A DNA stretch of 64,000 nucleotides from an uncultured Marinoscillum sp. (GTDB lineage: Bacteria; Bacteroidota; Bacteroidia; Cytophagales; MED-G16): positions 126,084 to 190,083 of the forward strand of contig CABZXU010000001.1 of NCBI GenBank assembly GCA_902529805.1, given 5' to 3'. Of this stretch, positions 20,956 to 55,757 are shown piece after piece. The position numbers and the translations under genes are program-made. The notes under the pieces are model-generated. The model was given only the letters and a program-made list of their open reading frames with translations, made no database searches and was not told the DNA's origin. Positions within the stretch are counted from its first letter, which is position 1. Each line of letters opens with the position of its first letter.

Positions 20956-20992
20956 TTAATATATGCAACATAAAGTTTAAAACTTTATACTA

Positions 20993-22558: not shown

Positions 22559-22577
22559 AATTATTAAGGTTTAAAAT

Positions 22578-25532: not shown

Positions 25533-25767
25533 AGTTTGCTTTAATTTGTTATACATATATTTATTAACAATCAATTATTTACTGAATGGGATATAAAAAA
25601 CCCAAATGCGCATAATATTTAGATTGTCGACAATTTTAATTAAGTTAACTGACACAAAAATGCCACATTTTTATATAAAACAAAATAATATATAAGAAAA
25701 TTTTAACATTAGTTTAACATTAAAAAAACATAGAATTTAAATTAAAATTGAAATCGGATAGTGATTT

Positions 25768-34393: not shown

Positions 34394-36238
34394 ATGTGTG
34401 GAATTATAGCTTATGTTGGTGATAAACCTAGTGCTGGTAAAATTCTATTTAAAGGGCTTCATGCCTTGGAATATAGAGGTTATGATAGTTCTGGAATAGC
34501 TTTGCTCAATGAAAGAAATAATATTAAGGTTTTTAAAAAAAAAGGAATAGTTAAACTAGCAGAAAAAAAATTTTTAAAAGAAAAGTTAAATTCAAATATT
34601 GGAATTGGACATACAAGATGGGCTACTCATGGCGAACCTAACAATAAAAATTCTCATCCTATACTATCATACTCTAAGAATTTTGCAATTGTACATAATG
34701 GGATAATTGAAAATTATTCAAGTTTAAAACAAATATTATTAGAAAAAGGATATGAATTCAACACAGATACTGATACTGAAGTTTTAATTAATTATATTGA
34801 AGAAATATATAATAAAAGTGGTTCTAATTTTGAAAACGCTCTAAGTACTGCTCTAAGACAGATAAGGGGAGCCTTTGCTATAGCAATTATTAATAAAAAA
34901 ACCCCAAAATATCTTTATGGAGCAAGAAGAGGAAGTCCTTTGGTAGTCGGAATTGCAGAAAAGAAGTTTTTTTTAGCTTCAGATGCTTCCCCAATTATTA
35001 AGTATACAAATGATGTAATTTATCTTAAGGATAATGAAATAGTAAAAGTTTCTTCTGAAAATCTTAAGATCACAAATCTAAAAAAAGAAAAAATTAATCC
35101 AGAAATTAAAAAAATTGAATTAAAAATTGAAGAAATTGAAAAAGGTGGATTTGATTCTTTTATGTTAAAAGAAATTATGGAACAACCAAAATCCATAAAA
35201 CGCTCAATGCTTGGTAGAATTAATGTAAATACCAAATCTTTATTTATAAATGGTATAAATGATTATGTCAATAAATTATTAAATGCAAGAAGAATTATAA
35301 TTGTTGGATGCGGTACATCGTGGCATGCTGGTCTAGTAGCTGAATATTTTTTTGAAAAATATACGAGAATTCCTGTTGAAGTTGAATATGCATCTGAGTT
35401 TAGATATAGAAATCCAATTTTAAATTCAAATGATGTTGTGTTTTTTATATCACAATCTGGAGAAACTGCTGATACTTTAGAATCTGTAAAAATTACCAAA
35501 AAAAAGGGGGCAACTGCATTAGGAATTGTAAATAGTGTTGGTTCTTCTATAGCAAGAGCAACTGATGAAGGATGTTATCTGCATGCTGGTCCAGAAATAG
35601 GTGTTGCTAGTACTAAAGCATTTACTTCACAACTAATAATATTATTTATGATTGGAGTAAGACTAGCAAGAAGATTAGATAAAATTAAGGAAAAAAAATA
35701 TGTTGAAATGATTTATCAGCTTGACAATATACCTAAACTAGTTAAAGAAATACTTAAGAAAAAAAATATAATAAAAAATATTGCTAAGATTATTTATAAA
35801 AAAAAAAGTTGTCTTTATATGGCTCGAGGAACCAATTATCCAGTAGGCTTAGAAGGAGCTTTAAAATTAAAAGAAATATCATATATACATGCTGAAGGGT
35901 ATCCTGCTGCTGAATTAAAACATGGCCCAATAGCATTATTAGAAAAAGGAACTCCCGTTATTGTAATCTGTACTAGAAGTGATGAGTATGAAAAAACAAT
36001 TGCTAATATTGAAGAGGTGAAAGCAAGAAAAGCTATGGTTATAGCAATTTTGGATTCAAAGAATAAACATGTGAGCAAAATGGTAGATCATTCCATCGTC
36101 ATCCCTCAAATCAAAAATGATTTTTCACCAATCTTAAATATTATTCCTCTCCAGTTGTTAGCATATTATGTTACAAAGTATAAAGGGCTAGATGTAGACA
36201 AACCCAGAAATCTAGCTAAATCTGTTACAGTAGAATAA
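34394..36238 (+). CDS. glmS: Glutamine--fructose-6-phosphate aminotransferase
   Basis: 614 aa with the N-terminal nucleophile MCGIIAY, two SIS domains, and the canonical C-terminus KSVTVE. Confidence 0.95.
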   Translation: MCGIIAYVGDKPSAGKILFKGLHALEYRGYDSSGIALLNERNNIKVFKKKGIVKLAEKKFLKEKLNSNIGIGHTRWATHGEPNNKNSHPILSYSKNFAIVHNGIIENYSSLKQILLEKGYEFNTDTDTEVLINYIEEIYNKSGSNFENALSTALRQIRGAFAIAIINKKTPKYLYGARRGSPLVVGIAEKKFFLASDASPIIKYTNDVIYLKDNEIVKVSSENLKITNLKKEKINPEIKKIELKIEEIEKGGFDSFMLKEIMEQPKSIKRSMLGRINVNTKSLFINGINDYVNKLLNARRIIIVGCGTSWHAGLVAEYFFEKYTRIPVEVEYASEFRYRNPILNSNDVVFFISQSGETADTLESVKITKKKGATALGIVNSVGSSIARATDEGCYLHAGPEIGVASTKAFTSQLIILFMIGVRLARRLDKIKEKKYVEMIYQLDNIPKLVKEILKKKNIIKNIAKIIYKKKSCLYMARGTNYPVGLEGALKLKEISYIHAEGYPAAELKHGPIALLEKGTPVIVICTRSDEYEKTIANIEEVKARKAMVIAILDSKNKHVSKMVDHSIVIPQIKNDFSPILNIIPLQLLAYYVTKYKGLDVDKPRNLAKSVTVE

Positions 36239-36595: not shown

Positions 36596-37018
36596 TTAAA
36601 GATATTTTTTCATATTAATTGAGCTCTTCTTAAAACCTTGTCTTGAATAAAAGTTTTCAAGATTTTCTTTACAAAACAACGTTATTCTATAACAACTATT
36701 TTTTTTCCCAATATTTATAAGCTCTTTTATTAAATTTTCACCAATAAACCTGCCTCTATAATTCTTATCGACAACAATATCTTCAATGTGTCCAGCAACT
36801 TCACATCTAATTTTGTTTTCAATAACTATTGAACCATAGGCAACTATTTTATTGTCCAAAACTCCAACTACTGATTTTGTGCTTTTATTTTGATTAAAAC
36901 TATTCCAAGCTGATTCTTTATCTATAGATTCAATATTTAATTCTTTTAATTGATTAAGAATTTTAAATACCCTATCTAAATCTTCTTTAATAACTTTTCT
37001 AAAAATCACTTTACTCAT
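36596..37018 (-). CDS. GNAT acetyltransferase, GNA1-like (glucosamine-6-phosphate N-acetyltransferase-like)
   Basis: 140 aa. The block AGHIEDIVVDKNYRG...CYRITLFCKENLENFYSRQGF...MKKY matches, from memory, the eukaryotic GNA1/GNPNAT1 pattern GHIEDI.V...Y.G.G.G..L......CYKI.L.C...N..FY.K.GF. Confidence 0.6.
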   Translation of the reverse strand: MSKVIFRKVIKEDLDRVFKILNQLKELNIESIDKESAWNSFNQNKSTKSVVGVLDNKIVAYGSIVIENKIRCEVAGHIEDIVVDKNYRGRFIGENLIKELINIGKKNSCYRITLFCKENLENFYSRQGFKKSSINMKKYL

Positions 37019-37619
37019 TGGTCTGAGTTTTTTTTGAATTTTTGTCTTTTATCCTGATTAAAACATATCCAAATGAAAATTGAAAAGTTGTGTTTTTTGT
37101 GTCATTTGCAAATGGATCATCATCAGAAATATTTTTCAGTCCTTTAACATATCTTACAGAAAAAATAAATCTATCTACAGGTTCAACTGATACGTCTAAA
37201 ACTAAACTAAAATCTCTTTTTAAAAATTTATCTTTAATATCTGTTGGAATTCCACTTACTTCATTAATGGCTCCAGTTAATATTCCAAATTGAGGTCCAA
37301 AATGAATATTCATTGGTCCAAATGAACTTCTAACTAGTATTGGAACATTTAAATAATTAATACTTCGAATCGTTGATGAGTTTATTTTTGTCCCCTGCGT
37401 TGAATACTGAAGCTCTGGTTGTATTCCAAAAATTAAAGGAAGCTTTATATAAGTAAAAACTCCAACATGCAAGCCAGTAATCGATTTTGTTCCAGAAATT
37501 GACTTTATATTTTGAGTTGCAAAATTAGATCCAGACTTTATTCCTAAATCAAATTTTTGAGAAAAAGAGTTTTGAATTATTAAAAGAAAAAAAATGAAGG
37601 TGAAAATTTTTGATTTCAT
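37011..37619 (-). CDS. Outer-membrane beta-barrel (porin/PorT-like) protein
   Basis: The signal peptide MKSKIFTFIFFLLIIQNSFSQ begins at the internal ATG at 37619. The sequence has an alternating beta-strand pattern and a C-terminal aromatic-rich strand. Confidence 0.65.
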   Translation of the reverse strand: MKSKIFTFIFFLLIIQNSFSQKFDLGIKSGSNFATQNIKSISGTKSITGLHVGVFTYIKLPLIFGIQPELQYSTQGTKINSSTIRSINYLNVPILVRSSFGPMNIHFGPQFGILTGAINEVSGIPTDIKDKFLKRDFSLVLDVSVEPVDRFIFSVRYVKGLKNISDDDPFANDTKNTTFQFSFGYVLIRIKDKNSKKTQTNE

Positions 37620-37843
37620 TTTTAAATTTACATTCATAAATTGTTTGAATTTATTTCAAAATTAATAAAAAATAGAACTGATAAACTTAATTTTTTTATA
37701 AAAGATTAAACCAAATAATCTTTTTAAATAGTTAATTAATATAAAAAAACTCTATTATTTCATTTGATTTTCGTTTTTTTATTAAAAAAAAATTAAATTG
37801 AACTCCTTTTGATTTTTTAAAATACTAACTATTTAATTATACT

Positions 37844-39436
37844 ATGAAAAAATTATTTAAAATTCCTAATTTATTAATATTACTAATTACTGCTATACTT
37901 TATTCTTGTGGAGGATCACAAGAAGTTCAAAAAAAACGTATGACGGTTACAACAAATTCTGATGAAGCTAGAGAATTACTTTATCAAGCATTAGATCAAG
38001 ATGAAGGATTAAATTGGCAAATAGCTGAGAATCTACTAAAATCTGCTTTAGCTAAAGATCCAAATTTTATACTAGCAAAGGCTTTATTAAATTCAGGTTT
38101 TGTTAACAATCCTAATTTAAAAGTATTATCTGAAATCAATAATAATTCCTTAGATAAAGTATCTGAAATGGAGGGATTATTTATTAAGGCATACTACCAA
38201 AGAGCTTCGGGAGAAAATAAAGAAAGTAGAGAAACATTAAAAAAATTGACTGACAAATATTCGGATATTCCAATTTTTTGGCTGCATAGTGGAATTCTTA
38301 AATCTATTGGTGGTGGCGGTGACATTAATGATGCGATCAAAGATTTAGAAAAGTGTTTAGAAGTTGATCCAAATAGTTATGGCGCAAATGCATTTCTTAT
38401 GGCTAAGCATATGGTTGTAGGAACTTTAGGTAGAATGCTTCCAGTAGAAGAAAGAGATTTAGAAGTTGCTAAAATGCATATAGATAAAATGATTGAAATA
38501 GATCCCAATAATTCATATGGTCCTACTTATGCAGGAAATTATGAAAGATCAAAAGGAAATTTTGAAAAAGCTATCGAGTACTACGAGCAAGCTGGAAGTA
38601 TTCCTTCGGATGACAATCTTAATCTTTATCAAGCAAATCATTACCTTGCATTAACCAATACATTTTTAAAAAAATATGATGTTGCTGAATCTTATTTTAG
38701 AACAAACATTGATATTGCAGAGGGTGGTTATCAAAGACAAGCTCTATGGTTTATGCCGAGTCTTCATATTTTTAATAGTGATTTTGATAGAGCAATTGAA
38801 GCAACAGATGAATATATCGAAAAAATGCCTACTTTGGAATTATCATATATTTTAGAAAATAATCAATTAGGGGGAGTTCATTTCCATAGATTCTTAGCTT
38901 TTTCTCATAATCAGCAAGATGAAGATTCATTTAAAGAAATTGAACAATTTTCAAAATTTAGAATGAATGTAATGGAATATAATAAATCATCAATGACTGA
39001 AAAGCAATATCAGGATGGACAAGATAGGCTAAATTATCAAGTTCAGATTATGAAAGCATGGCATGCCATTCTTTTTGGAAGGTATGATGATGCCCGACAA
39101 TCTTTGGTGTCCGCTAAGCAATTTGTTGAAGAAGGCATAAAAGAAAATCCAGATTGGCAATACCCATACTTTGACATTAATGTTTTTGAAGGAATGATTC
39201 TACTTAACGAAGGTGATTTTAATGCATCAATTGAATCTTTTGAAAAAACTAAAGGTAAAGTTGGAAACGGTGCTTTAAATATGGACAGAGTTTATTTTGA
39301 TTACTTTCATGCTCTTGCTTTAAAAGGAGCTGGAAGAATAGATGAAGCAACTCCTATATTCACTAGAATAGCTAACGAAAACTTTTACGGCATTGGAAGA
39401 GCATTAACAAGGGAACTTGCAGCTGCTCAAATTTGA
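37844..39436 (+). CDS. TPR-repeat lipoprotein
   Basis: 530 aa with lipobox LYSC and repeated TPR-like helical pairs. It ends 21 nt upstream of the sensor phosphatase gene. Confidence 0.65.
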   Translation: MKKLFKIPNLLILLITAILYSCGGSQEVQKKRMTVTTNSDEARELLYQALDQDEGLNWQIAENLLKSALAKDPNFILAKALLNSGFVNNPNLKVLSEINNNSLDKVSEMEGLFIKAYYQRASGENKESRETLKKLTDKYSDIPIFWLHSGILKSIGGGGDINDAIKDLEKCLEVDPNSYGANAFLMAKHMVVGTLGRMLPVEERDLEVAKMHIDKMIEIDPNNSYGPTYAGNYERSKGNFEKAIEYYEQAGSIPSDDNLNLYQANHYLALTNTFLKKYDVAESYFRTNIDIAEGGYQRQALWFMPSLHIFNSDFDRAIEATDEYIEKMPTLELSYILENNQLGGVHFHRFLAFSHNQQDEDSFKEIEQFSKFRMNVMEYNKSSMTEKQYQDGQDRLNYQVQIMKAWHAILFGRYDDARQSLVSAKQFVEEGIKENPDWQYPYFDINVFEGMILLNEGDFNASIESFEKTKGKVGNGALNMDRVYFDYFHALALKGAGRIDEATPIFTRIANENFYGIGRALTRELAAAQI

Positions 39437-39457
39437 TTATTTTCTTAAATTATATTT

Positions 39458-42400
39458 TTGATGAGAAATTGGCTTATTATACTATTTCTATTTATAAACT
39501 ATATTTCTTTTTCTCAATCAAATATTTTAATTAAAAAACAGGATATTGATAATTTATCTTCAGAAAAAGTAAATTCTATATTTGTTGATAATAAAACATT
39601 TTCTTGGATAAGTACCCCTGAGGGATTAAATAGATTTGATGGAAAAAATAATACTGTTTTTAGATCCAATCCTTTTGATAGTACTACTATAATTGATAAT
39701 AATGTTTTTGGGGTTTTCCAAATAGATAATAATGGGGTCTTTGTTAAATCAAATGAAGGTCTAGATTATTTCAGTTATTCTGATTTTAATTTTAAGAGAA
39801 TTCAAGATAAGTCAAAACCAATTCATCATATTTTTAAAGAAAATAAATTATTTTTTTCAACAGAATCAGAGGGTTTATTTGTGTATGATTTAAGTAAAAA
39901 TCAAATTGATAATTTTAAGTTTGACCCGAGAAATCCACTTTCAATTTCTTCATCAAATTTTTCTGAAAACCAAAATCAGATTATAAAATTAATTAGAACA
40001 GATAATACATCTTCCGATTTGTGGTTAGGAACATTGTATGGACTTAATAAATTTAATCTGAATACAAAATCTTCTAAAAGATTTTATGAAAACTCTCAAG
40101 ATAATTCTCTTAATTCTAATATCATAAATGATATTTTTGATCTTGCAGATTCAACAATTTCATTAGATTCAGACCTATCAAGTAAACTTCTTATTTCGAC
40201 TGAAAATGGACTTTCAATGGTCGATAAATTAAGTAATAAAATAACTAATTATGAAAGTTTAAGAAATAATAAAATTTATAATATTTTTAAAATATCTACC
40301 ACTTTGCTTATTCATAAAAAAGATGGGGTTTTTAAAATTGAAAGTTTGAATGAAAATGAAATTAAGTTAAGTAAAATTTTTAACTCAAGAGATGAAATAA
40401 AAATAAAAATCATTAATGAAAACGAGTTTATTATTTTTAAAAAAAATACATCCAAATTTAATAGAATAGTATATTTCAATAATCAATTTATAGATATCCC
40501 TATTGAATTATCTAATAAAATTAATATTAATGACATAGGTAATTTTAATAGTTCATATTATGTTTCATCAAATTCTGGATTAATTAAAATTAACGAGAAA
40601 CTCGATAATATAAACAATGTTACATTAAATGAAATTGGACAAAATACTATTATTGCTTTTGCAGAAAATGATTATTATAAAGCGATATTATTATCAGATG
40701 GAAATTTATTATTGTACGAATATGAATCCTTAGTAAAAAAAATTAAAATAAAAGGATTTTCAAATGATTTGATTCTCAATACTGCTTTTCATCTTGAAGA
40801 AGATGAATTCATTGCTTTAGGAAATGAAAAATTACAAATAATTAATCTAAATGATTTTTCAATTGAGACATATGAAACTTCTAACGAAGGTTTTAATTCT
40901 ATTTTAGAAGGAAACATTGATAATTTAAAAACTATTAAAAGACAAAACTTAACAGGTAAAGAATTATGGATTTCCCTTAATAATGGGATTTCTATTTTAA
41001 ACTTAGATACGAAAGAGTTTAATAACTTTAAATTTAACCCAAGAAGTAAAAATAAATTTCCGCAAGGATTTTCATCTGTTATTATTTCAAACAAAAATGA
41101 AGTTTGGTTAACAAATAGCTCTACTGGATTATACAAATACGATGAAAATAATTTAGATGAAATCAATCATTATATTTTTGATATTAACGATAAAAAAAGT
41201 ATTACAAGTTCATCTTTGACTGATATTTATGAATATGATGATAAACTATACATCTCATCAAATGGTGACGGAATATTTATATATGAAAATGATTCAACCG
41301 GTTTTTTACATTTGACTATTGATAATGGATTATTATCTAATCAGGTTTTAAATTTTTTTGAAACCTATGAATATTTATTTGTTCTGACTGAACTTGGATT
41401 AAATTACTTTGACTATGAAGGAAATCTTAGAAATGTAAACGATGAAGATGGATTAATAGTTGGTAATTTTTTAAAAAATGGATTAAGTCTTTATAATGAT
41501 TTTCTATATGTTTATTCTAATAATCAAATTCAATCCATTGATATAAATAATATTTTTGTTGATAATGTAAAACCAATTATAAACATAACACAATCACTTA
41601 TGATTGATAATAATTTTGATAAGAGAAGTTATAAAATAAACAAAAATAAAATAAACCTAACTTATGATATTTCTAATATTGAACTTGTTTTATCATCTCC
41701 TTCTTATTATAAATCAAATAATACAACTATTCTTTATAAATTGTCTCCAATCAATGAAGATTGGCTAAGCTTAGGAAAAGAAAAAAACTTAATCATTCAA
41801 AGTTCGAGTTGGTCAAATAGTTTTGTAAATGGAAATAAAATACTTGTTCCATTTGGGAATTATAAATTAGAAATTAAGTCATCTAATAGTTCAGGAATAG
41901 AAAGTTCAAATCTTCTTTCATATGATTTAAGTGTAACACCTCCATGGTACCTAACTCAAATGGCATTCTTTTCCTATTTGATAATTTTAGGGTCATCAAT
42001 TTATTTTTATGTAAAATATAGTCAGGGAAAGACAAAAAGACTTATGGAAGAAAAAAGAAAAGAGGAAGAACTTCAAGAAGCGCATAACCTTCAAATGGGT
42101 TTACTTGCTAAAGAAAACCCAAATAGAGATGATTTAGATATAAGTACATATATAAGATGTGCAACTGAGGTTGGAGGAGATTATTATGATTTTATTGAAT
42201 TTGAAGACGGAAGTTTATTGGCCATATGTGGAGATGCTACTGGACATGGAACTGCATCTGGAATGATGGTTTCAATAACAAAAGCAGGACTTCTTGGAAT
42301 TGATTCAAACGATCCGGAATTTATGCTAAAAACATTAAATAGAATAATAAAAAAAGTAGATATAGGTAGATTAAGAATGAGCTTAAATCTTGTTCATTTT

Positions 42401-42775
42401 CAAAATGGAAGTATTAAACTTAGTTCTGCTGCAATGCCACCAATATATCATTTTGAAAAGAAGAATAAAAAAGTAGATGAAATTCAATTATCAAATCTTC
42501 CTTTAGGAGGATTAATGAATGAAAGTTTTTCAGTAATTGATAAAAAGTTTGGGAAAGATGATGTGTTGGTAATGATTTCTGATGGGTTACCTGAAGCTCC
42601 AAATAAAAAAGGAGAGCTGCTGGATTATGAAGCTGTAAAAAAATGCATTGAAGAGAATGGTTATAAATCAGCAAATGAAATTAAAAATGAACTAGTTAAA
42701 TTATCAGAAACTTGGTTAGATGGGATTCATAACCCTGATGATATAACAATTGTTGTCTGCAAGAAAAAGGTTTAA
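39458..42775 (+). CDS. Membrane sensor: periplasmic two-component-regulator-propeller/Y_Y_Y-like region + TM + PP2C (SpoIIE/RsbU-type) phosphatase
   Basis: 1105 aa. Propeller-type repeats recur (WISTPEGLNRFD, WLGTLYGLNKFN, WISLNNGISILN, WLTNSSTGLYKYD). A single TM segment MAFFSYLIILGSSIYFYV is encoded at about 41960-42015. PP2C motifs GGDYYDF, GDATGHG and ISDGL are present. Confidence 0.8.
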   Translation: MMRNWLIILFLFINYISFSQSNILIKKQDIDNLSSEKVNSIFVDNKTFSWISTPEGLNRFDGKNNTVFRSNPFDSTTIIDNNVFGVFQIDNNGVFVKSNEGLDYFSYSDFNFKRIQDKSKPIHHIFKENKLFFSTESEGLFVYDLSKNQIDNFKFDPRNPLSISSSNFSENQNQIIKLIRTDNTSSDLWLGTLYGLNKFNLNTKSSKRFYENSQDNSLNSNIINDIFDLADSTISLDSDLSSKLLISTENGLSMVDKLSNKITNYESLRNNKIYNIFKISTTLLIHKKDGVFKIESLNENEIKLSKIFNSRDEIKIKIINENEFIIFKKNTSKFNRIVYFNNQFIDIPIELSNKININDIGNFNSSYYVSSNSGLIKINEKLDNINNVTLNEIGQNTIIAFAENDYYKAILLSDGNLLLYEYESLVKKIKIKGFSNDLILNTAFHLEEDEFIALGNEKLQIINLNDFSIETYETSNEGFNSILEGNIDNLKTIKRQNLTGKELWISLNNGISILNLDTKEFNNFKFNPRSKNKFPQGFSSVIISNKNEVWLTNSSTGLYKYDENNLDEINHYIFDINDKKSITSSSLTDIYEYDDKLYISSNGDGIFIYENDSTGFLHLTIDNGLLSNQVLNFFETYEYLFVLTELGLNYFDYEGNLRNVNDEDGLIVGNFLKNGLSLYNDFLYVYSNNQIQSIDINNIFVDNVKPIINITQSLMIDNNFDKRSYKINKNKINLTYDISNIELVLSSPSYYKSNNTTILYKLSPINEDWLSLGKEKNLIIQSSSWSNSFVNGNKILVPFGNYKLEIKSSNSSGIESSNLLSYDLSVTPPWYLTQMAFFSYLIILGSSIYFYVKYSQGKTKRLMEEKRKEEELQEAHNLQMGLLAKENPNRDDLDISTYIRCATEVGGDYYDFIEFEDGSLLAICGDATGHGTASGMMVSITKAGLLGIDSNDPEFMLKTLNRIIKKVDIGRLRMSLNLVHFQNGSIKLSSAAMPPIYHFEKKNKKVDEIQLSNLPLGGLMNESFSVIDKKFGKDDVLVMISDGLPEAPNKKGELLDYEAVKKCIEENGYKSANEIKNELVKLSETWLDGIHNPDDITIVVCKKKV

Positions 42776-42777
42776 AA

Positions 42778-44346
42778 TTATTTATGTTTATAAACCCAAA
42801 CATCAATAGGTTTTGATTTACCTTTAACTTGTATTGGGGAAATTTCTTTAAATTTATAATCATCAGTAAGTGATTTTTTTACATATTTAGAAATCAATAT
42901 TTCACCAGACTTAGCATGTGAACAAAGCCTAGCCCCAAGATTTATAGTATCGCCAATAACTGTATAATTCATTTGTTGTTCTGAACCTATATTACCCGAT
43001 ACCGCTTTTCCTTTATTGATTCCAATGCCTATTTTAAAAGGTTCAAAACCATCCTTTACTATTTTAGAGTTAAATTTATCAAGAGACTTAAACATTTCAA
43101 TAGCAGTTTTAATAGCATTTTCTGTGTCATTTTCATTTTTTAATGGCACTCCATATAATACCATTAATTCATCCCCAACAATTTTATCTAATGTACCATT
43201 AAATTTAAACACAACATCAATCATTGATTGAAAATACTTATTTAATAGTTTAACAATCTGCTTGGGACTTAACTTTTCTGACATACTAGTAAATCCTCTT
43301 ATATCAGAAAAAAGAATAGTAATTTCACTTTCTTCACCACCGAGATTTAGAGAATTTTCATTTTCTAAAAGTTTATCTACAATATTTTTTGATACATATT
43401 TTTTAAACGTAGATTTTACTTTATTAATCTTCGAAAGATCATCCATTGCTATAACAATTCCCGAAAAAGACTTCCCTTCATCAAATACAGGAGAACAAGA
43501 TAAATTTATACTAATGTTTTTAGATTTAGATTTTAAATTAAATTCGGATTCAAATATTCTTTTTTGCTCTGATTCTACTTTTTGAATTAAATCAATTAAT
43601 AAATTGTTTTTTTCGAAAATTATAAAAAAATGATTTCCAATCACTTCATTTTCATCTTTTTTAAGTAATCTAAGGGCTTCCTTATTAGTGAACTCAATTT
43701 CACCAAATAAATTAATTTCTACAATTCCAGTAGTAATAGAAGACATTATGTTTTCATTAAGCTTGTTGGATTTTTTTAATGACTCAAGTAGTTTAACATT
43801 TTGAAATGCAATACTTGTTTGAATTGAGATTGCTTCCAAAAGCTTTAGATCATTTTTCTCAAAATTTATAATACCATCACGAGATTCTTTATCAAATAAA
43901 ATGATTGCTCCAACTAATTTATTATTATATAAAATTGGGCTAGTTAATGCTTTTTTAGAATCAAATAATTCATGATTAAAATCATCTTTACTAGTAACTA
44001 TAAATGATTTTTTTTCTTTATTTAATTTTTTTAAAAAACCAGATCTAGTATTGAAAATTTGCTTTTTAATATTTTCTTCTTCTATATTAAAAGATGATAC
44101 GGTATCAAAAATATTTGAAACATCATTTTTGATTAAAACAATTCCCTTAGAAGAATTTATAATTGAAGAAGATAAAGTTAAAACATTAAAAAAAAGTTCA
44201 TTAAGATCATCAAGAGAATTTATTGTATTAGTTAGATCTAAAAGGGTTTCTAACTCTAAATATTTTTCATTTAAGGATTTATTTTTTTTTAATAGTTGAT
44301 TTTCTAAATCTTCTATAGATTTTTTTGAAGAAATGGGTGAAACCAT
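42778..44346 (-). CDS. Coiled-coil/GAF/PAS sensor class III adenylate cyclase
   Basis: 522 aa. The C-terminal cyclase domain has metal-binding Asp in FSDIRGFT and GDELMV. The purine-specifying Lys in LDKIVGDE and Thr in NYTVIGD fit an ATP-specific class IIIb enzyme. GDTINLGARL is also present. Confidence 0.8.
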   Translation of the reverse strand: MVSPISSKKSIEDLENQLLKKNKSLNEKYLELETLLDLTNTINSLDDLNELFFNVLTLSSSIINSSKGIVLIKNDVSNIFDTVSSFNIEEENIKKQIFNTRSGFLKKLNKEKKSFIVTSKDDFNHELFDSKKALTSPILYNNKLVGAIILFDKESRDGIINFEKNDLKLLEAISIQTSIAFQNVKLLESLKKSNKLNENIMSSITTGIVEINLFGEIEFTNKEALRLLKKDENEVIGNHFFIIFEKNNLLIDLIQKVESEQKRIFESEFNLKSKSKNISINLSCSPVFDEGKSFSGIVIAMDDLSKINKVKSTFKKYVSKNIVDKLLENENSLNLGGEESEITILFSDIRGFTSMSEKLSPKQIVKLLNKYFQSMIDVVFKFNGTLDKIVGDELMVLYGVPLKNENDTENAIKTAIEMFKSLDKFNSKIVKDGFEPFKIGIGINKGKAVSGNIGSEQQMNYTVIGDTINLGARLCSHAKSGEILISKYVKKSLTDDYKFKEISPIQVKGKSKPIDVWVYKHK

Positions 44347-44355
44347 TTAATAAAT

Positions 44356-44700
44356 TTAAGAAAGTTTTTCTAAAGCCGAATCAACTGAATCGTAGACCTC
44401 ACAATACTTAGTTATACCCATAATGTTAAAGGTTTTTTCAACAATACCAGCAAGATTAGTAAATGCCATAACTCCATTTACAACCTGTAATTTTTCAATA
44501 ATTTCAATAAGAATGGATACACCAATACTGTTTACAACCTTTGAATCATTCATGTCCACTAAAAATTTAGTGCTTCCAGATTCCATTTTTTCAGTAAATA
44601 CTTCTAAAACAGCTTCTCCAGCAAGATTATTAAAATAACCAGCGGTACTAATTATTATTACACCATCTTTTTCTTCAACATTTTTTATAGAATCACTCAT
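44356..44700 (-). CDS. STAS-domain anti-sigma-factor antagonist (RsbV/SpoIIAA-like)
   Basis: 114 aa with a STAS fold pattern. The candidate phosphorylatable Ser lies in VVNSIGVSIL. Confidence 0.8.
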   Translation of the reverse strand: MSDSIKNVEEKDGVIIISTAGYFNNLAGEAVLEVFTEKMESGSTKFLVDMNDSKVVNSIGVSILIEIIEKLQVVNGVMAFTNLAGIVEKTFNIMGITKYCEVYDSVDSALEKLS

Positions 44701-45127
44701 TATCTCTTTTTTTAGTCATTGTTACAGTTGTACCTGATTCATCACTATTATATTCAACCGAGTCCATTAATTCAGAAACAAGTTGAAGACCCCACCCCCT
44801 TTTTCTTTCATCAGAATTTAATTTATTTTCAATATTAGGTATTTCCACTTTAGATTTATCAAAACCAACTCCTTTGTCAATAACTTTTACAGTTAATTTA
44901 TCTGGTTCAACAATAAAGTGAATAAAAATTTCCTTAGTCTTTGAATGTTCAAATGCATTAATACATGATTCAATTAGGGCCATACTAATCTCAGCAGATT
45001 TTTCTTCAGAAAGATTCATATGCTTAGATATAACCTCAGCAGTCTTAGTTGCTGATAGTTCTATATCTGGAATTACTGGTAATTTTAATTCAACTACTGG
45101 CTCTTTTCCCATAAAATTTTTACTCAT
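44693..45127 (-). CDS. RsbW/SpoIIAB-like serine kinase (HATPase_c_2)
   Basis: 144 aa with N-box ESCINAFEH, G1 box DKGVGF and G2 box RGWGLQLV. It overlaps the STAS gene by 8 nt. Confidence 0.8.
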   Translation of the reverse strand: MSKNFMGKEPVVELKLPVIPDIELSATKTAEVISKHMNLSEEKSAEISMALIESCINAFEHSKTKEIFIHFIVEPDKLTVKVIDKGVGFDKSKVEIPNIENKLNSDERKRGWGLQLVSELMDSVEYNSDESGTTVTMTKKRDNE

Positions 45128-45241
45128 TTAAAAAGGTGTAATTTAATCCTTATCAAATTAATTATAAAGAAAATTTTACAAAAAATAATTATGTTTCTTT
45201 TTTTCATGAATTATCTACTATTTTAACAAAAAATAATAAAA

Positions 45242-45763
45242 ATGAAAAAAGGTAAAGTAAATCATGATGAAGTAGAAAACTATTGGGAGCTAATAAATTA
45301 TAATATACATCATATTAGTCATTCTGAATTGAAAGCATCGCTTATTCTAACTGCTTATGGAATAATTTTTGGCTTAGCTTACGATGTAAGCACTGAGTTT
45401 CCTATTAAAAACAATTTATTATATATATTTTATTTTTTAATTATATCGTTTATTTCCCTTACAATTATATCAATTGGATATTGTTTTAAAACATATATCC
45501 CAAGATTGAATAATAAACTTAAAAAATCAGTATTTTTTTTTCATGATATAAATTTCCATTATAAAACAGCAGAAAAATATTCAAAAAAACTTATAAAAGT
45601 TATGGAAGATGAAAGGGAGTTGAAACTATTACTTGCAGAACAGTCTTATATAAATGGTGTGATTGCTTCAAAAAAATATACAAATGTCACAAAAGCAATA
45701 AAATTTATGATTTACTCTCTTTCTGCTCTTTTTTCCCTTCTTATTTTTGAACTATTTGCTTAA
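45242..45763 (+). CDS. DUF5706 / Pycsar-effector-family membrane protein
   Basis: 173 aa with 3-4 TM segments. Motifs recalled for DUF5706 are present: HISHSELKASLIL (compare LSxxADxKAxIml), VFFFHDINF (compare NLLFFGNF) and a C-terminal KKYTNVTKAIKFMIYSL (compare KYryLritY). Confidence 0.6.
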   Translation: MKKGKVNHDEVENYWELINYNIHHISHSELKASLILTAYGIIFGLAYDVSTEFPIKNNLLYIFYFLIISFISLTIISIGYCFKTYIPRLNNKLKKSVFFFHDINFHYKTAEKYSKKLIKVMEDERELKLLLAEQSYINGVIASKKYTNVTKAIKFMIYSLSALFSLLIFELFA

Positions 45764-46360
45764 TTCTTCCAATTTTTTTTTTGCATATAATATATTTTTT
45801 TCTTTTTGTATATCTCCATTTTCTTTCATAAAATCAGTATAAAACTGATGAATACTTAGAAATTCTAATTGTTTATTGTAAAATTCTTCATCATTCTTAA
45901 CCACATTAAATTTAACCCATTCTTGTTTTAATTTTTCAGAAATATTTTCAAAATCTTTTGAGCCAAGATACTCTAAGTCTGAATCTCTTATAATTGATTC
46001 TAAATTATCTTTTGGAACAGCCAATGGCTTTGTTACTAATATTAACTTTTTTATTGATTCAATTGTTTTTTCATTATAATCATATTCTAATAATATTTTA
46101 CTTGAAAATTTAACCCCTATTTCTTCATGATTAATGTGAGATTCAATGAAACCATAATCATGTAATAAAGATGCCGTTAAAAGTGCTCTCCAATTTTCAT
46201 TATTAAGATCATAATTACTTCCTATTTTTAATGCTGATTTTATTACTCTTTTTGTATGAAATAAATTATGATAAAAATAATTTGGATTTAATTTTTCAGA
46301 CAAATCTCTAAATATCCTTTCAGACAATTTCTTAGGCACATAGTTTTTAAAAAAAAACAT
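45752..46360 (-). CDS. HD-domain metal-dependent phosphohydrolase
   Basis: 202 aa with the HD signature YHNLFHTKRV...LLHDYGF...RDSDL. Its 3' end overlaps the DUF5706 gene by 12 nt, convergently. Confidence 0.75.
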   Translation of the reverse strand: MFFFKNYVPKKLSERIFRDLSEKLNPNYFYHNLFHTKRVIKSALKIGSNYDLNNENWRALLTASLLHDYGFIESHINHEEIGVKFSSKILLEYDYNEKTIESIKKLILVTKPLAVPKDNLESIIRDSDLEYLGSKDFENISEKLKQEWVKFNVVKNDEEFYNKQLEFLSIHQFYTDFMKENGDIQKEKNILYAKKKLEELSK

Positions 46361-46395
46361 TTTGTAAATTAAGCTTGATTACAAATATAAAAATA

Positions 46396-46995
46396 ATGAA
46401 AACACCGCTAGTAAATCCAAAATATTCTAAAAACATCAAATTAAAAAAGCTAATTGATTTTTATAATGAAACGTTAGGTTTCTGTCCAAATAGTATAAAA
46501 ACAATGTATTTAAGACCTGAAATTGCATACTCTTTTATAGAATTAAATAAGGCGGTAATGAATAATAAAGGAAATGTAACTTCTGAATTGAAAAGAATGA
46601 TTGGTTTTATAAGTAGCAATGTATCAGGATGTAATTACTGTAAGGCCCATACCATTCGAGCTGCAGAAAGATATGGGGCAAGTAAAAAAAAAATAGAAAA
46701 CATATGGGAATATAAGACTTCAGATCTATTTACAAAAAAAGAAAAAATCGCATTAGAATTTGCATATAGAAGTTCAATAACTCCAAATGCAGTTGATGAT
46801 AACATAGCTAATGAATTAAGAAAATACTGGAAAGATGGTGAAATAGTAGAGATTCTTGGAGTAATTTCTTTATTTGGATTTTTGAACAGATGGAACGATT
46901 CCATGGGAACAGAGATTGAAAAACCGGCGTATGAATCTGGGAAAAAACTAATACCTAAAAAAAAATGGAATCCAAATAAACATATTTACAAATAA
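46396..46995 (+). CDS. Carboxymuconolactone decarboxylase (AhpD-like) family peroxidase-related protein
   Basis: CxxC motif CNYCKAHT. The start is taken at ATG 46396 (MKTPLVNP); the ORF track used an upstream TTG at 46375. Confidence 0.7.
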   Translation: MKTPLVNPKYSKNIKLKKLIDFYNETLGFCPNSIKTMYLRPEIAYSFIELNKAVMNNKGNVTSELKRMIGFISSNVSGCNYCKAHTIRAAERYGASKKKIENIWEYKTSDLFTKKEKIALEFAYRSSITPNAVDDNIANELRKYWKDGEIVEILGVISLFGFLNRWNDSMGTEIEKPAYESGKKLIPKKKWNPNKHIYK

Positions 46996-47001
46996 GATAA
47001 A

Positions 47002-47922
47002 ATGAATATAAATTATATATATCTAATTGTTATTTTTCAAGTTTTAGTTTCTTGTAACCTTAGTCAAAAAATAAATAATGATTATTTACCATCTCAAACT
47101 ACTGAAACAATAACACCATTAGGAGATACATTGATAAGCCCTAAATTGAAAGAAGGAAAATCATTAAATCAATTTAAATCTGCTCAAAAAAATTATATAA
47201 AAAATATAGATAATGCTGAATCCTTAATTTGGTATGGTAGAAGAACAGCTTATCTAGGTTATTATCAAGAAGCAATTAATTTGTATACTAAAGGAATAAA
47301 AAGCTATCCTAATGACCCACGTTTTTATCGACATAGAGGTCATAGATATATTTCAACTCGTCAATATGATAAAGCAATCAAAGATTTTCAAAAAGCAATT
47401 GAATTAGTTGCTGGTAATGTTGATCAAATTGAGCCCGATGGGTTACCTAATAAAAATAATATTCCATTGACTACGCTTCATGGTAATATTTGGTATCATC
47501 TTGGCTTAGCATATTACCTTAAAAATGATATGAAAAATGCTCTAAAAGCATATAGCAATAGAAGTGTAAGTCATAAATATGATGACAACATCGTTTCAAG
47601 TACACATTGGCTATATATGATAAATAGAAGACTCGGTAATATAAAAAGAGCTAACTCCATAATAGATAATATTAATAATGAAATGAATATTATAGAAAAT
47701 ATGAGCTATTACCAATCCTGTTTATTCTATAAAGGTGAAATTGAAGAGTCAGATCTTATTATTGATGACGTAGCATTGTACTCTTTGGGGAATTGGTATA
47801 TGTATGAAAAAAACGATTCATCAATTGCAAAAAAATATTATAAAGAATTACTTGATAAAGGAAACCCATACTCATTCGCTTATATTGCAGGAGAATCTGA
47901 CTGGACTAGATTTTTTGAATAA
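47002..47922 (+). CDS. TPR-repeat lipoprotein
   Basis: 306 aa with lipobox LVSC and TPR motifs (YYQEAINLYTKGIKSYPNDPRFYRHRGHRYISTRQYDKAIKDFQKAIEL). Confidence 0.65.
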   Translation: MNINYIYLIVIFQVLVSCNLSQKINNDYLPSQTTETITPLGDTLISPKLKEGKSLNQFKSAQKNYIKNIDNAESLIWYGRRTAYLGYYQEAINLYTKGIKSYPNDPRFYRHRGHRYISTRQYDKAIKDFQKAIELVAGNVDQIEPDGLPNKNNIPLTTLHGNIWYHLGLAYYLKNDMKNALKAYSNRSVSHKYDDNIVSSTHWLYMINRRLGNIKRANSIIDNINNEMNIIENMSYYQSCLFYKGEIEESDLIIDDVALYSLGNWYMYEKNDSSIAKKYYKELLDKGNPYSFAYIAGESDWTRFFE

Positions 47923-51059: not shown

Positions 51060-51755
51060 ATGAAAAATTTATTTATTGGATTCTTTACCATTATTATGGT
51101 ATTTGAATCTAAAGCACAGCAGGTATATTGGAATTGTTTTAATATAATTGTTGATAATCCAACTGAATTAGTAACTGCGCTAGACGCTTTTATGGAAACT
51201 ACCGATGCAGGAAAAAGTTTTACTCCAGCTTCTCTTACAGAAATGAGAAATTATGGAACAAACTATTCAGCTACTCATCAATTATGTTTCTTTTCACCAG
51301 ATCCAGCCTCATTAGAAGCTAACAGAAGTAAATTAAATAATTTACAAGCAGGTGTACTTATGGGGGTTTGGGATAAAACCGTAACAGTTGAATCATCTAT
51401 TCTAGGTCAATCTCTAATAGCTGATCCTTCAAAATTCAATTTGCCATATGGTGTGATTTACTCCATTCAAGTATCAGACCCCGTAGCTTATGGTGCTGCA
51501 TTTTCAAAAATGATATCGTCTATAGACTATGATGGAGCTATAGAATTACATGAAGCATTGATTGGCGGTGAAACAGGAGTAACTCATTATATTGTTGTTA
51601 GAACTAAAGATATGGCTACATGGGTAAGAGAAAGAAATAAGGTAAATGCATCTAAAGCATTTCAAGATTTTATAGTTGCTACAAGTGCTATTTCTAATAG
51701 ATCTGCAGTAGATATTTTCTCAGGTATGTTGATTAAACAATATAACGTACAATAA
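51060..51755 (+). CDS. Secreted protein of unknown function, array member A (two ferredoxin-like halves)
   Basis: 231 aa with signal peptide ..VFESKAQ/Q. It is a paralog of 52643..53329 (shared ATH, P..Y..AF.KM and GV(T/S)HYI motifs). Confidence 0.8.
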   Translation: MKNLFIGFFTIIMVFESKAQQVYWNCFNIIVDNPTELVTALDAFMETTDAGKSFTPASLTEMRNYGTNYSATHQLCFFSPDPASLEANRSKLNNLQAGVLMGVWDKTVTVESSILGQSLIADPSKFNLPYGVIYSIQVSDPVAYGAAFSKMISSIDYDGAIELHEALIGGETGVTHYIVVRTKDMATWVRERNKVNASKAFQDFIVATSAISNRSAVDIFSGMLIKQYNVQ

Positions 51756-51762
51756 ATATGTC

Positions 51763-51832
51763 TTATTTGGATTTATTCCAAATAATATATAATTTGCTCT
51801 CCCTTTCAACTTGAAAGAAGGGAGAGCAAATT
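51763..51832 (+). terminator. Two consecutive hairpins after array gene A (attenuator/processing site candidate)
   Basis: Hairpin 1 is TTATTTGGA/TCCAAATAA (51763-51785, 9 bp, loop TTTAT). Hairpin 2 is AATTTGCTCTCCCTT/AAGGGAGAGCAAATT (51791-51832, 15 bp, 12-nt loop). No U-tract follows either. Confidence 0.5.
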
Positions 51833-51860
51833 ATATTAAAAACTAAACTTAAAGGGTATC

Positions 51861-52622
51861 ATGAAAAATTTTATATTAATTTTCGCATTAATTATTAATG
51901 CTAATTTCGTTTTTGGCCAAGCTATTTCGTATAGATATATTAAACCTATAAAAGGTCATGGTCAAGACCTTAGAAAAGGATTAGAAGACAAAACAAAAAA
52001 ATATAATTCCAAAGAAAGCGATCCAAGGATTTATACTTTTGCAGTTAGGGCAAGTCAAAGAGGGTCAATGTCGGGAGTTCTTAGGATGTCTTATGGTGAA
52101 ACACTAGGTGAACTGTCAGTTGGCGGATCTGGTCAACCTGGAATGATGGAATACTGGATGGAAAATGTTGATAAATATATTGAATCAAATTCTCCAAGTG
52201 AAATTTTTACTCTAAGAAAAAGCGCTACTCATAATGATGCGTTAGGTACTGAAAAACCTTTTAGAAGAGTTTTTCATTACATTATTAAACCAGGACAATG
52301 GGACAAATTTTGGAAAGTCAGAGATAATTTACCCAAAGCAATTGAAGAATCAGGTGTTGACTTTGACGTTAATGCTTTTCAATCTTTTGCTGGTGGACCA
52401 AGAGGACATGTAAGAATTGTTGTTTTTGGAAAAGACATGAAAAGTTTTGAACCAGGATCTGGGGATTGGCAAAAAATAAGATCTGCTTATGAAAAGATTT
52501 ATGGGGAGGATTCATGGGATATAGACTGGGAATTAAGTAGAAATAGTCAACGAGAATGGGGAAATTCAGTTGAATTACTTGAATTTATGCCTGAATTAAG
52601 TTCCCCATTATTAGATAAATAA
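51861..52622 (+). CDS. Secreted protein of unknown function, array member B
   Basis: 253 aa with signal peptide ..NFVFGQ/A. It is a paralog of 53362..54120 (shared KYN, YTF, FWKVR, Y..IYG..SW..DW and PELSSP motifs). Confidence 0.8.
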   Translation: MKNFILIFALIINANFVFGQAISYRYIKPIKGHGQDLRKGLEDKTKKYNSKESDPRIYTFAVRASQRGSMSGVLRMSYGETLGELSVGGSGQPGMMEYWMENVDKYIESNSPSEIFTLRKSATHNDALGTEKPFRRVFHYIIKPGQWDKFWKVRDNLPKAIEESGVDFDVNAFQSFAGGPRGHVRIVVFGKDMKSFEPGSGDWQKIRSAYEKIYGEDSWDIDWELSRNSQREWGNSVELLEFMPELSSPLLDK

Positions 52623-52642
52623 ACTTAAAACTTAAAATAACT

Positions 52643-53329
52643 ATGAAAAAATCAATTATAATTTTACTTATAATATTTACACATCTAAACGTTTTTTCAC
52701 AAGAATATGTGTGGACTGTATATAATATTAAAGTAGACAGAGTTAATGCAGGGCAAGTTGTTACTGCAATGGATAAATACCTTTCAAAACCTGGTAATTT
52801 AGTAGATGGTGTCACTGTATCTTTATTTGAAATAATGTTTGCTAGTAATGACATGGATGCAACACATGTAATTGCTTTTACAGGTAGTGCAGATGCTATG
52901 AATGCTCAATATTCTAGAGAGACTGGTGATGACTGGAAAGTAATGATGAGTACGTTTGATCAAGTAACTAAAAGTGATGGGTCAGCTGCAGGTAGATCTA
53001 TTCATACAATAAATACTGATGCAGAAGGTCCAATGCAACATATCATACAAATGAAAGTTGATGAACCACAAAAATATGCTCCTGCATTTAAAAAAATGTG
53101 GTCTACAGTAAAGCCTAGTGGTAGGTTAACTTTAGGTCAATTTATTAGTGGTAGAAAAGATGGGGTTTCTCATTATATTTTAATATCAAGAAATAATTTA
53201 AAGGATCTTCTTTCTCCAAGAGAGTGGAATACCAAGGAACAAGATGCATGGGAAAAGTATAGAAAAGAAAGAGGTGATTCGGAAATTATCACAACAATGA
53301 CAAGAGCGTTGGTAAAACAATGGAAATAA
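52643..53329 (+). CDS. Secreted protein of unknown function, array member A'
   Basis: 228 aa with signal peptide ..LNVFSQ/E. It is a paralog of member A. Confidence 0.8.
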   Translation: MKKSIIILLIIFTHLNVFSQEYVWTVYNIKVDRVNAGQVVTAMDKYLSKPGNLVDGVTVSLFEIMFASNDMDATHVIAFTGSADAMNAQYSRETGDDWKVMMSTFDQVTKSDGSAAGRSIHTINTDAEGPMQHIIQMKVDEPQKYAPAFKKMWSTVKPSGRLTLGQFISGRKDGVSHYILISRNNLKDLLSPREWNTKEQDAWEKYRKERGDSEIITTMTRALVKQWK

Positions 53330-53361
53330 TTTTTTAAACTAAAAACTAAATTTATAATACA

Positions 53362-54120: not shown

Positions 54121-54151
54121 AATAATTGTATAATGTAAATTAAAAATAAAA

Positions 54152-54919: not shown

Positions 54920-54952
54920 ATATTAATTTTTAGATTAAAATAAATTTTTAAA

Positions 54953-55729: not shown

Positions 55730-55757
55730 TTTTTTATTATAATAAATTTAAAATCAA

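Follow-up and report, generated by a model that had tools for sequence, protein, structure and literature searches.

Partner switches are taught as sigma factor regulators: in the RsbU/V/W-SigB and SpoIIE/AA/AB-SigF modules, the alternative partner of the kinase is a sigma factor encoded in the same operon. The minus strand of the 64,000-nucleotide (nt) stretch of uncultured Marinoscillum sp. DNA analysed here (contig CABZXU010000001.1; hereafter the window) encodes an RsbW/SpoIIAB-like kinase, a STAS antagonist and then a GAF- and PAS-containing class III adenylate cyclase. The locus thus raises the question of what is controlled by a switch in which a cyclase stands where a sigma factor would be expected. 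The motifs, gene neighbourhoods and natural fusions described below make it probable that a sigma-independent partner switch gates the synthesis of cyclic AMP (cAMP).

The gene coordinates given in the initial annotation, the 8-nt overlap of the kinase and STAS genes, the 9-nt gap before the cyclase and the convergence of a PP2C phosphatase gene on this operon were all exact in the list of open reading frames (ORFs). The kinase stop and the STAS start overlap in ATGAGTGA, the STAS-cyclase spacer reads ATTTATTAA, and the stop codons of the convergent cyclase and PP2C genes are 2 nt apart. Co-transcription of kinase, STAS and cyclase was deduced from these overlaps and spacings and not from promoter or terminator signals, a scan for consensus promoters and terminators over 42500..45400 having given counts equal to those of shuffled sequences. 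No Rfam family was matched over 37000..47500 (E<=0.1), including the intergenic region upstream of the kinase gene. The absence of a sigma factor gene from the window, also claimed at the outset, held in so far as none was detected by phmmer with RpoE, SigB and SigF (approximate query sequences; best E 0.06) or by Pfam among ten sigma-sized ORFs, the remaining ORFs having not all been scanned with Pfam.

The kinase matched HATPase_c_2 (PF13581) with 80 bits in Pfam and consists of a GHKL domain only. As in partner-switch kinases, N, G1 and G2 boxes are present without a HisKA domain, and the residues E53/N57/H61 (N box), D84xG86xG88 (G1) and R110-G111-x-G113 (G2) were invariant in eight orthologues. 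Its closest structure in the PDB was Bacillus subtilis RsbW (6M36, E 7.5e-10), and its scores were under the NCBIfam equivalog cut-offs of RsbW (56 vs 145) and SpoIIAB (44 vs 135). The STAS protein (PF01740, 44 bits) has no further domain and no DNA-binding domain, and was likewise far under the NCBIfam equivalog cut-off of SpoIIAA. Its V56-N57-S58-x-G60 motif (VNSIG) was invariant in seven orthologues from two phyla, and S58, a phosphorylatable serine at the start of helix 2, aligns with the phosphoserine region of RsfB and SpoIIAA; the structure of TM1081 also aligns. Ser58 is accordingly marked here as the predicted phosphorylation site of the kinase. By sequence, the two proteins are predicted to share the fold and chemistry of RsbW, SpoIIAB and SpoIIAA, and they are not orthologues of these.

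The cyclase matched Guanylate_cyc (PF00211) with 116 bits and PAS/PAS_9; its GAF match was borderline (22.9 bits vs a cut-off of 22.4), and the same region reached up to 78 bits in aligned homologues. The metal-binding residues D348 and D392, the substrate-contacting residues K388 and T462, and N469 and R473 were invariant in 18 homologues, which is the residue set of subclass IIIb (two metal aspartates, Lys and Thr, Asn and Arg). The catalytic domain is close (E 1e-28 to 1e-41) to those of CyaB of Pseudomonas aeruginosa, CyaC of Spirulina and Cya2 of Synechocystis (2W01), and all of these positions are identical to those of class IIIb enzymes; K388 and T462 align with the Lys and Thr of CyaB (3R5G) and CyaC (1WC0). 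The exception is the guanylate cyclase Cya2, which has Glu and Gly at the two substrate positions. These alignments indicate ATP as the substrate, in agreement with the ATP-specific class IIIb enzyme first proposed from the same Lys and Thr, and cAMP would then be the product. The motifs first singled out in kinase, STAS and cyclase thus proved real and invariant in orthologues. We know of no kinase/STAS/PP2C switch encoded with CyaB, CyaC or Cya2.

Conservation of the gene order had been set beforehand as a check on the proposed coupling of switch and cyclase. Homologues of the cyclase were sought among 1.84 billion representative proteins, yielding full-length relatives down to about 35% identity, and the alignment was used to fetch 80 genomic loci, in which genes were called with hidden Markov models (HMMs) built from the window proteins. 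In this set, STAS and kinase genes lay beside the cyclase gene wherever the cyclase was at least 36% identical and the contig reached the flank. The loci concerned were those of the window clade (L001-L003, the last a single-amplified genome labelled 'uncultured Marinoscillum sp.'), uncultured Bacteroidetes (L004), a Cytophagaceae metagenome-assembled genome (MAG; L005), Balneola (L006), Sediminibacterium (L008) and a Gemmatimonadales MAG (L009), the latter with the permuted order PP2C>cyclase>kinase>STAS and 4-nt overlaps. Five more switch-linked lineages were recovered by exact-protein look-up, with cyclase identities of 66% (P0121), 51% (P0122), 42% (P0124), 44% (P0125) and 38% (P0126).

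STAS, with the kinase where the contig reaches it, therefore adjoined the cyclase in 11 of 11 lineages (the window clade, L083/84, L085, L004, L005, L008, L088, L089, L086, L006 and L009) over a range of cyclase identities of 38-85%. As a control, a broad STAS profile that included SpoIIAA and RsbV found STAS in none of about 72 loci around cyclases of less than 36% identity, and a single RsbW-like gene, fused to REC, was present among them (L028). Linkage of switch and cyclase is not due to chance; it extends to 38% cyclase identity and, in permuted order, into a second phylum. No sigma factor gene was found among the Pfam-annotated genes of L001, L083-L089, L170 and L172. Many cyclase homologues carry N-terminal extensions of 125-175 residues, which resemble an extra GAF domain, and no fused STAS or kinase was found in them.

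Two loci show related arrangements. The REC-HATPase_c_2 gene in the control set, from a Terriglobia MAG (L028:9641-10516), directly follows a GAF-GAF-PAS cyclase gene, with no STAS gene detected nearby. At L104:4111-6411, a single 766-residue protein unites phosphatase and kinase (PAS, SpoIIE-type PP2C and HATPase_c_2 domains); STAS and GAF-PAS cyclase genes come next.

Physical joining of the two activities was found in nature. A kinase-centred scan of metagenome contigs revealed a single ORF of 826 residues (L120) with the order GAF-PAS-Guanylate_cyc(497-669)-linker-HATPase_c_2(710-824), in which the linker is Lys-rich and about 20 residues long, and STAS genes lie on both sides. With this protein as query, at least 53 distinct 90%-identity clusters combining PF00211 and PF13581 were found in a collection of 5.8 billion proteins. 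The clusters are 41-90% identical, some lie on contigs of 5.7-8.1 Mb and one is named Candidatus Latescibacterota; the number of clusters and the size of the contigs argue that the fusion is no assembly artefact. In the automatic annotation of JGI, the fusions are called 'class 3 adenylate cyclase/anti-sigma regulatory factor (Ser/Thr protein kinase)'. Compared with the window proteins, the fused kinase domain shares 47% identity with the kinase across its full length (E 5e-41) and the GAF-PAS-cyclase portion 30% with the cyclase (E 7e-77), and the Lys and Thr are kept. A full switch surrounds the fusion in L170 (STAS>kinase>FUSION>STAS> <PP2C), and L172 reads FUSION>STAS; a second STAS gene directly after the cyclase was found in fusion loci and in L123. 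Among the 77 matches of the fusion search, none was listed with a STAS domain (PF01740) together with the cyclase.

The functional coupling of switch and cyclase that had been proposed, in either direction, is therefore supported by the conserved linkage, by the distant-cyclase control, by the fusions and by the PP2C genes that accompany the module. One to three PP2C genes, mostly encoding membrane sensors of about 1100 residues, were found in all related loci whose flanks were long enough. In the window, the linked SpoIIE/RsbU-type PPM phosphatase has an N-terminal hydrophobic segment (residues 7-25) within a predicted signal peptide, an extracytoplasmic region of about 800 residues, a hydrophobic segment and a C-terminal catalytic domain (PF07228, 82 bits, residues 917-1102); weak Reg_prop and Y_Y_Y matches were obtained for its orthologues. 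The N-terminal hydrophobic segment of the TPR protein encoded just upstream ends in Cys. The TPR-PP2C pair is kept in L001, L003, L006, L086, L157 and L160 and also beside the ExbB-type sister cassette described below, and the lipoprotein is the probable periplasmic partner of the sensor phosphatase.

In two loci with cyclases 77-78% identical to that of the window (L001:3979-7182 and L003:1-5407), one or two extra sensor-PP2C genes lie directly upstream of the kinase gene on the same strand. As only 114 nt separate the window kinase gene from the next gene upstream, near relatives differ in how many input phosphatases they have. In an Opitutales MAG (L023:9730-12677), a GAF-GAF-PAS cyclase gene without kinase or STAS genes beside it is directly followed by two strong homologues of the TPR lipoprotein (HMM E 1e-138 and 5e-67); the TPR protein may have a link of its own to the cyclase family, apart from the switch.

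The neighbouring genes on the other side extend the unit. The gene divergent from the kinase encodes a PycTM-family protein (PF18967, 41 bits vs a cut-off of 27), which matched the PADLOC PycTM model PDLC02364 over its full length (85.6 bits). Its linkage to the cyclase was found in four lineages: in the window, L001 and L083/84 the gene lies upstream and is divergent, and in L085 and L088 it lies downstream and is convergent. Persistence of the linkage despite the change of position argues for a functional tie; the gene is absent from most lineages. The PycTM-like gene and the gene of an HD-domain protein converge with a 12-nt overlap (45752..45763), and the same tail-to-tail overlap also occurs in L001, L083 and L084. 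Residues H31/H35, H67-D68 and D126 of the HD protein are invariant, and a cyclase with a fused C-terminal HD domain, 33% identical to the window HD protein (E 1e-23), is encoded in P0123, L004, L005, L007, L165 and L169. The HD protein had no NCBIfam match and no PDB sequence match. Its AlphaFold2 model (mean predicted local distance difference test score 95.7) gave weak Foldseek matches (E 3e-4 to 1e-2) that were split between uncharacterised HD hydrolases and class I cyclic nucleoside monophosphate (cNMP) phosphodiesterases, and for this reason a phosphodiesterase role, while plausible, is put forward as a hypothesis only.

The module is thus larger than first noted and comprises the TPR lipoprotein, PP2C, kinase, STAS, cyclase, PycTM-family protein and HD hydrolase, spanning 37844..46360 (Table 1); the HD hydrolase and the PycTM-family protein are members of it with putative roles. 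It is surrounded by housekeeping genes, including a glmS-like gene (34394..36238), a tsaB-like gene, a peptide deformylase gene and a Rho-like ORF, and the GC content at the locus is ordinary.

Table 1. Genes and intergenic region of the cyclase-linked switch module in the window, with strand and assigned families.
Feature	Position	Strand	Size and family
RsbW/SpoIIAB-like GHKL serine kinase, first gene of the operon	44693..45127	-	144 aa; PF13581 HATPase_c_2
Single-domain STAS protein, predicted kinase substrate via Ser58	44356..44700	-	114 aa; PF01740
GAF-PAS class IIIb adenylate cyclase	42778..44346	-	522 aa; PF00211 + PAS + GAF
Sensor PP2C phosphatase, convergent with cyclase	39458..42775	+	1105 aa; PF07228
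TPR lipoprotein, 21 nt upstream of PP2C	37844..39436	+	530 aa; multiple TPR Pfam matches
Divergent intergenic region between kinase operon and PycTM-like gene	45128..45241		114 nt; presumed promoters, putative function
PycTM-family (pJV1-spdB3-type) membrane protein with three transmembrane segments, divergent from kinase	45242..45763	+	173 aa; PF18967
Stand-alone HD-domain phosphohydrolase	45752..46360	-	202 aa; PF01966

The other surroundings of the kinase were surveyed from the kinase itself. In a kinase-centred metagenome tally, 76 kinases were found, of which 37 lay on contigs too short to judge; among the 39 readable ones, 17 were linked to a cyclase (16 adjacent and one fused). Seven low-GC metagenome contigs (L112, L136, L144, L149, L153, L156 and L158; e.g. 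L136:2322-8875) carry a sister cassette with the order large sensor PP2C > RsbW-like kinase > STAS > ExbB > ExbD > ExbD > TonB and a TPR homologue downstream, in which the same switch core appears to be wired to a TonB energising complex. The TPR/PP2C/kinase/STAS core is thus a portable cassette and the position after STAS a swappable slot, which fits the logic of an output slot. In a neighbour-joining tree of the kinase domains, cyclase linkage was scattered over several clades; the tree has no support values and is used descriptively only. The original proposal that a cyclase occupies the slot of the sigma factor is supported, the linkage being conserved and the searches of the window described above having detected no sigma factor; it is tempered by the sister cassette and by a sigma factor gene near some fusions.

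Several of these observations weigh against a gating of the cyclase by the switch. Seven of the 39 readable kinases precede ExbB-ExbD-ExbD-TonB, and a further 15 lie near neither a cyclase nor ExbB, mostly in high-GC kinase>STAS>GAF-PP2C cassettes. The kinases of the sister cassette are 63-67% identical to that of the window, as close as cyclase-linked kinases of other orders, and the kinase is therefore not specifically co-adapted to the cyclase. Similarly, kinase identity across Bacteroidota orders is 63-69%, vs 40-48% for the cyclase, and this high conservation is not creditable to cyclase binding alone. In L171 and L173, which encode fusions of 667 residues, a 290-residue sigma-70-family gene with regions 1.2, 2, 3 and 4 (L171:5471-6343 and L173:5464-6336) lies two genes upstream, following a phosphotransferase system EIIA(Ntr)-like gene, with no STAS or PP2C gene within 7 kb; the fused kinase could here still be acting on a sigma factor. 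The C-terminal position of the kinase relative to sensor and cyclase in the fusions fits equally well with a signal flow from GAF/PAS/cyclase to kinase. Finally, in the best-characterised analogue, SiaABCD, the direct activator is the STAS-like protein and not the kinase.

Partner switches with outputs other than sigma factors have been described, namely SiaABCD, HptB-HsbR-HsbA-HsbD, BgrV/BgrR and the Moorella stressosome (PMC7647112). In P. aeruginosa SiaABCD, the diguanylate cyclase SiaD is under the control of the PP2C SiaA, the kinase SiaB and SiaC, a STAS-like protein, and in Moorella the diguanylate cyclase MtG is attenuated by binding of the switch kinase MtT (PMC7647112). SiaC activates SiaD, and the STAS protein HsbA acts on the diguanylate cyclase HsbD (PMC5085249, PMC8457831). 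In Anabaena, the partner-switch-like module HenR/Alr3423/All4160 controls a STAS-fused glycosyltransferase (PMC13555669), and control of cyclic di-GMP (c-di-GMP) enzymes by PP2C, kinase and STAS was predicted in a genomic survey of Campylobacterota (PMC9239204).

The window module shares with SiaABCD a second-messenger cyclase encoded together with a PP2C sensor, a kinase of the anti-sigma type and an antagonist-fold protein that can be phosphorylated; a sigma factor gene is absent from SiaABCD and was not detected in the window. The output of SiaABCD is a GGDEF diguanylate cyclase producing c-di-GMP, whereas that proposed for the window is a PF00211 class III enzyme with GAF and PAS and without GGDEF; SiaC is phosphorylated on Thr68, whereas the window protein is a canonical PF01740 STAS with Ser58; and in the window-type family it is the kinase, not the antagonist, that is found fused to the cyclase. 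As proposed here, switch proteins bind the cyclase directly in HsbA-HsbD and MtT-MtG, the latter providing a precedent for a kinase with a cyclase partner. Both of these systems control c-di-GMP, and Moorella uses an RsbR/RsbS stressosome (MtR/MtS/MtT), in contrast to the single STAS and transmembrane PP2C sensors of the window. HsbR combines REC, PP2C and kinase in one protein and takes its input from a phosphorelay. The HenR system also controls an enzyme and not transcription; its STAS domain is part of the enzyme polypeptide, which phosphorylation inhibits in cis, whereas the window STAS is a separate protein and the domain found fused to the cyclase in this family is that of the kinase. 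The window module is therefore an analogue of the SiaABCD/HsbA-HsbD/MtT-MtG class and not a member of it.

Other known classes were considered and set aside. The Bacillus anti-sigma modules RsbU/V/W-SigB and SpoIIE/AA/AB-SigF are built from the same three protein types (PF07228, PF01740 with Ser, PF13581). The window module differs in that no sigma factor was detected in the 64 kb, the kinase and STAS scores are far under the equivalog cut-offs of the Bacillus proteins and the phosphatase is a membrane sensor of 1105 residues; it was not assigned to the canonical anti-sigma modules. It was not assigned to the stressosomes either, which consist of two STAS proteins (RsbS, and RsbR with a sensor domain at its N terminus), the kinase RsbT and the phosphatase RsbX; the window has one short STAS protein and a large membrane sensor as phosphatase. 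CapK is an HTH-STAS-GHKL protein (HTH, helix-turn-helix) and CapS a DNA-binding STAS-winged HTH repressor (PMC13373217), whereas the window kinase is GHKL only (144 residues) and its STAS protein STAS only (114 residues). Pycsar and Pucsar systems are pairs of a cyclase and a transmembrane effector (bioRxiv 10.64898/2026.08.12.744502). Their effectors may be of the PycTM or the CNBD-TIR type, and cyclases of the Pycsar-related immune clade evolve fast, mostly stand alone and are distributed variably, in the manner of islands. The window module likewise pairs a class III-fold cyclase with a PycTM-family protein, whose gene is 114 nt upstream and divergent and is so linked in four lineages, and adds a phospho-switch and a co-linked HD hydrolase. 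Membership was rejected on the GAF-PAS multidomain structure, the Lys and Thr residues, the housekeeping context and retention from family to phylum, a judgement made without a phylogeny of the immune clade.

The mechanism favoured here would run as follows. The transmembrane PP2C, with the TPR lipoprotein, would sense an extracytoplasmic cue and dephosphorylate STAS-Ser58-P, and the RsbW-like kinase would re-phosphorylate Ser58. In the absence of unphosphorylated STAS, a kinase dimer would bind the dimeric cyclase and fix its activity state, the cyclase taking the place of the sigma factor in RsbW-SigB. Capture of the kinase by STAS would release the cyclase, which would also integrate its own GAF and PAS inputs. 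The product would be cAMP, with the HD hydrolase as phosphodiesterase or effector and the PycTM-family protein as candidate effector. We infer every protein-protein contact in this scheme, the sign and direction of regulation, and the roles of the HD and PycTM-family proteins. That the kinase and not STAS makes the direct contact on the cyclase is proposed tentatively and might well prove wrong; this version is favoured since it is the kinase that is repeatedly found in covalent fusion with the cyclase.

Direct regulation of the cyclase by STAS, bound in its unphosphorylated or its phosphorylated state in the manner of SiaC-SiaD and HsbA-HsbD, with kinase and PP2C setting only the phosphorylation of STAS, is the strongest competitor and is nonetheless rather unlikely. 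The order PP2C-kinase-STAS-like-cyclase of SiaABCD is also that of L004, L005 and L008, SiaC activates SiaD directly and HsbA acts on HsbD (PMC8457831, PMC5085249), STAS immediately adjoins the cyclase in all Bacteroidota loci, and the second STAS gene of the fusion loci and L123 falls right after the cyclase. Against this, it is the kinase that recurs in fusions, PF01740 having accompanied the cyclase in 0 of the 77 fusion-search matches, and in the Gemmatimonadales order the kinase and not STAS abuts the cyclase. A smaller chance is given to a flow in the opposite direction, in which the GAF-PAS-cyclase is an input that controls the kinase by conformation or local cAMP, the output being STAS phosphorylation acting on an unlinked target such as a sigma factor, a TonB system or another. 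Signals usually flow from N to C terminus in multidomain signalling proteins, and the fusions run sensor-cyclase-kinase; the sigma-70-family gene of L171/L173 and the occurrence of the PP2C-kinase-STAS cassette without a cyclase (ExbB type or PP2C only) would also be explained. The module, however, already has dedicated sensor phosphatases as inputs, and across the 11 lineages no candidate output is conserved besides the cyclase (and HD or PycTM). Apart from L171/L173, no sigma factor gene was found among the annotated genes of cyclase-linked loci, and cAMP synthesis is itself an output activity, with invariant catalytic residues.

The PycTM-family neighbour could be taken to mark an anti-phage system, that is, a Pycsar/Pucsar-like cyclase with a pore effector in which kinase and STAS act as a CapK/CapS-like controller. 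This is very unlikely, even though the neighbour is full-length and divergent and is cyclase-linked in four lineages at two positions, the cyclase catalytic domain matches PADLOC PycC models (79 bits), purine-making 'Pucsar' cyclases with transmembrane effectors exist, and immune operons with kinase and STAS regulators (CapK/CapS) are known. The bare GHKL kinase and the STAS protein without a DNA-binding domain are unlike CapK/CapS, and no PADLOC match was obtained for the kinase, STAS, PP2C and HD proteins. The cyclase fits the general Pfam model better (116 bits) and has GAF and PAS, described Pycsar-clade cyclases being mostly stand-alone, and its Lys and Thr indicate ATP as the substrate. 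The surroundings are housekeeping genes of ordinary GC, PycTM is absent from most lineages, and retention of the module across diverged lineages suggests vertical inheritance. Least probable of all, and to be given hardly any weight, is mere co-expression, with the switch regulating something else and making no direct regulatory contact with the cyclase. The cassette does occur with other downstream genes; yet linkage in 11 of 11 lineages, one of them in another phylum and with permuted order, as opposed to 0 of about 72 control loci, and 53 clusters of covalent fusions are hard to reconcile with it.

Gating of cAMP synthesis by a sigma-independent switch would be the apparent cAMP counterpart of the switches that control c-di-GMP, by a route of cAMP control that is apparently undescribed: in the openly accessible full-text literature, no description was found of a partner switch with a class III cyclase or of a cyclase-RsbW-kinase fusion. 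The known enzyme-controlling exceptions to the sigma rule act on c-di-GMP or on a glycosyltransferase, and, if the gating is true, cAMP would join the outputs of serine-phosphorylation switches. It would also assign a role to at least some 'orphan' RsbW/RsbV/RsbU homologues of phyla that lack SigB-type sigma factors and give a first handle on cAMP signalling in the abundant marine Bacteroidota. To our knowledge, cAMP signalling in these bacteria is poorly characterised. The natural fusions offer a single-polypeptide system for biochemistry and structure, and the co-linked PycTM-family and HD genes raise the question of physiological uses of an immune-effector family. In its most extended form, the proposal would make the RsbW-type kinase dimer a direct, STAS-releasable allosteric clamp on the cyclase dimer. 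Such a sigma-free switch would be widespread, with kinase and cyclase as separate proteins in Bacteroidota and Gemmatimonadota and as one polypeptide in Latescibacterota-like and other bacteria, and would convert extracytoplasmic cues sensed by the PP2C phosphatases into cAMP. The targets of this cAMP in marine Bacteroidota would be an HD phosphodiesterase and a PycTM-family pore or channel with a housekeeping function. As a whole this is a long shot; if true, the Pycsar 'suicide' effector family also has, or derives from, a physiological role in cAMP signalling.

Candidate targets of the cyclase product were sought among further genes. No cNMP-binding protein was found in the window by phmmer with CRP and with a tandem cNMP-binding-domain protein of the Gemmatimonadales locus. 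In that locus (L009:7410-12689), the switch operon continues with a VWA-SH3 protein and then a 336-residue protein with two cNMP-binding domains, the latter being a candidate for the receptor, in this lineage, of what the cyclase makes. In other lineages, the gene in the place taken in the window by the PycTM-family gene, beside the module, encodes a TMEM175 K+ channel (L004:10100-10556), a YitT/DUF2179 protein (L005:10115-10987) or a bestrophin-like protein (L086:1001-1936), and a 291-residue ORF in L165 (1761-2636) resembles the YitT/DUF2179 protein of L005 by N-terminus and size. These varied channel-like neighbours may point to cAMP-controlled ion flux.

Two other arrays were observed in the window, away from the module. 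Seven tandem ORFs of 228-258 residues with N-terminal signal-like segments at 51060..56504 on the plus strand resemble a paralogous array, the first of which had no Pfam match. On the minus strand, 10438..25574 contains three consecutive genes encoding proteins of about 1100 residues (10438..13731, 13739..17029 and 17589..20900) downstream of genes for proteins of 998 and 521 residues, and by sizes and N-termini looks like a SusC/SusD-type uptake locus.

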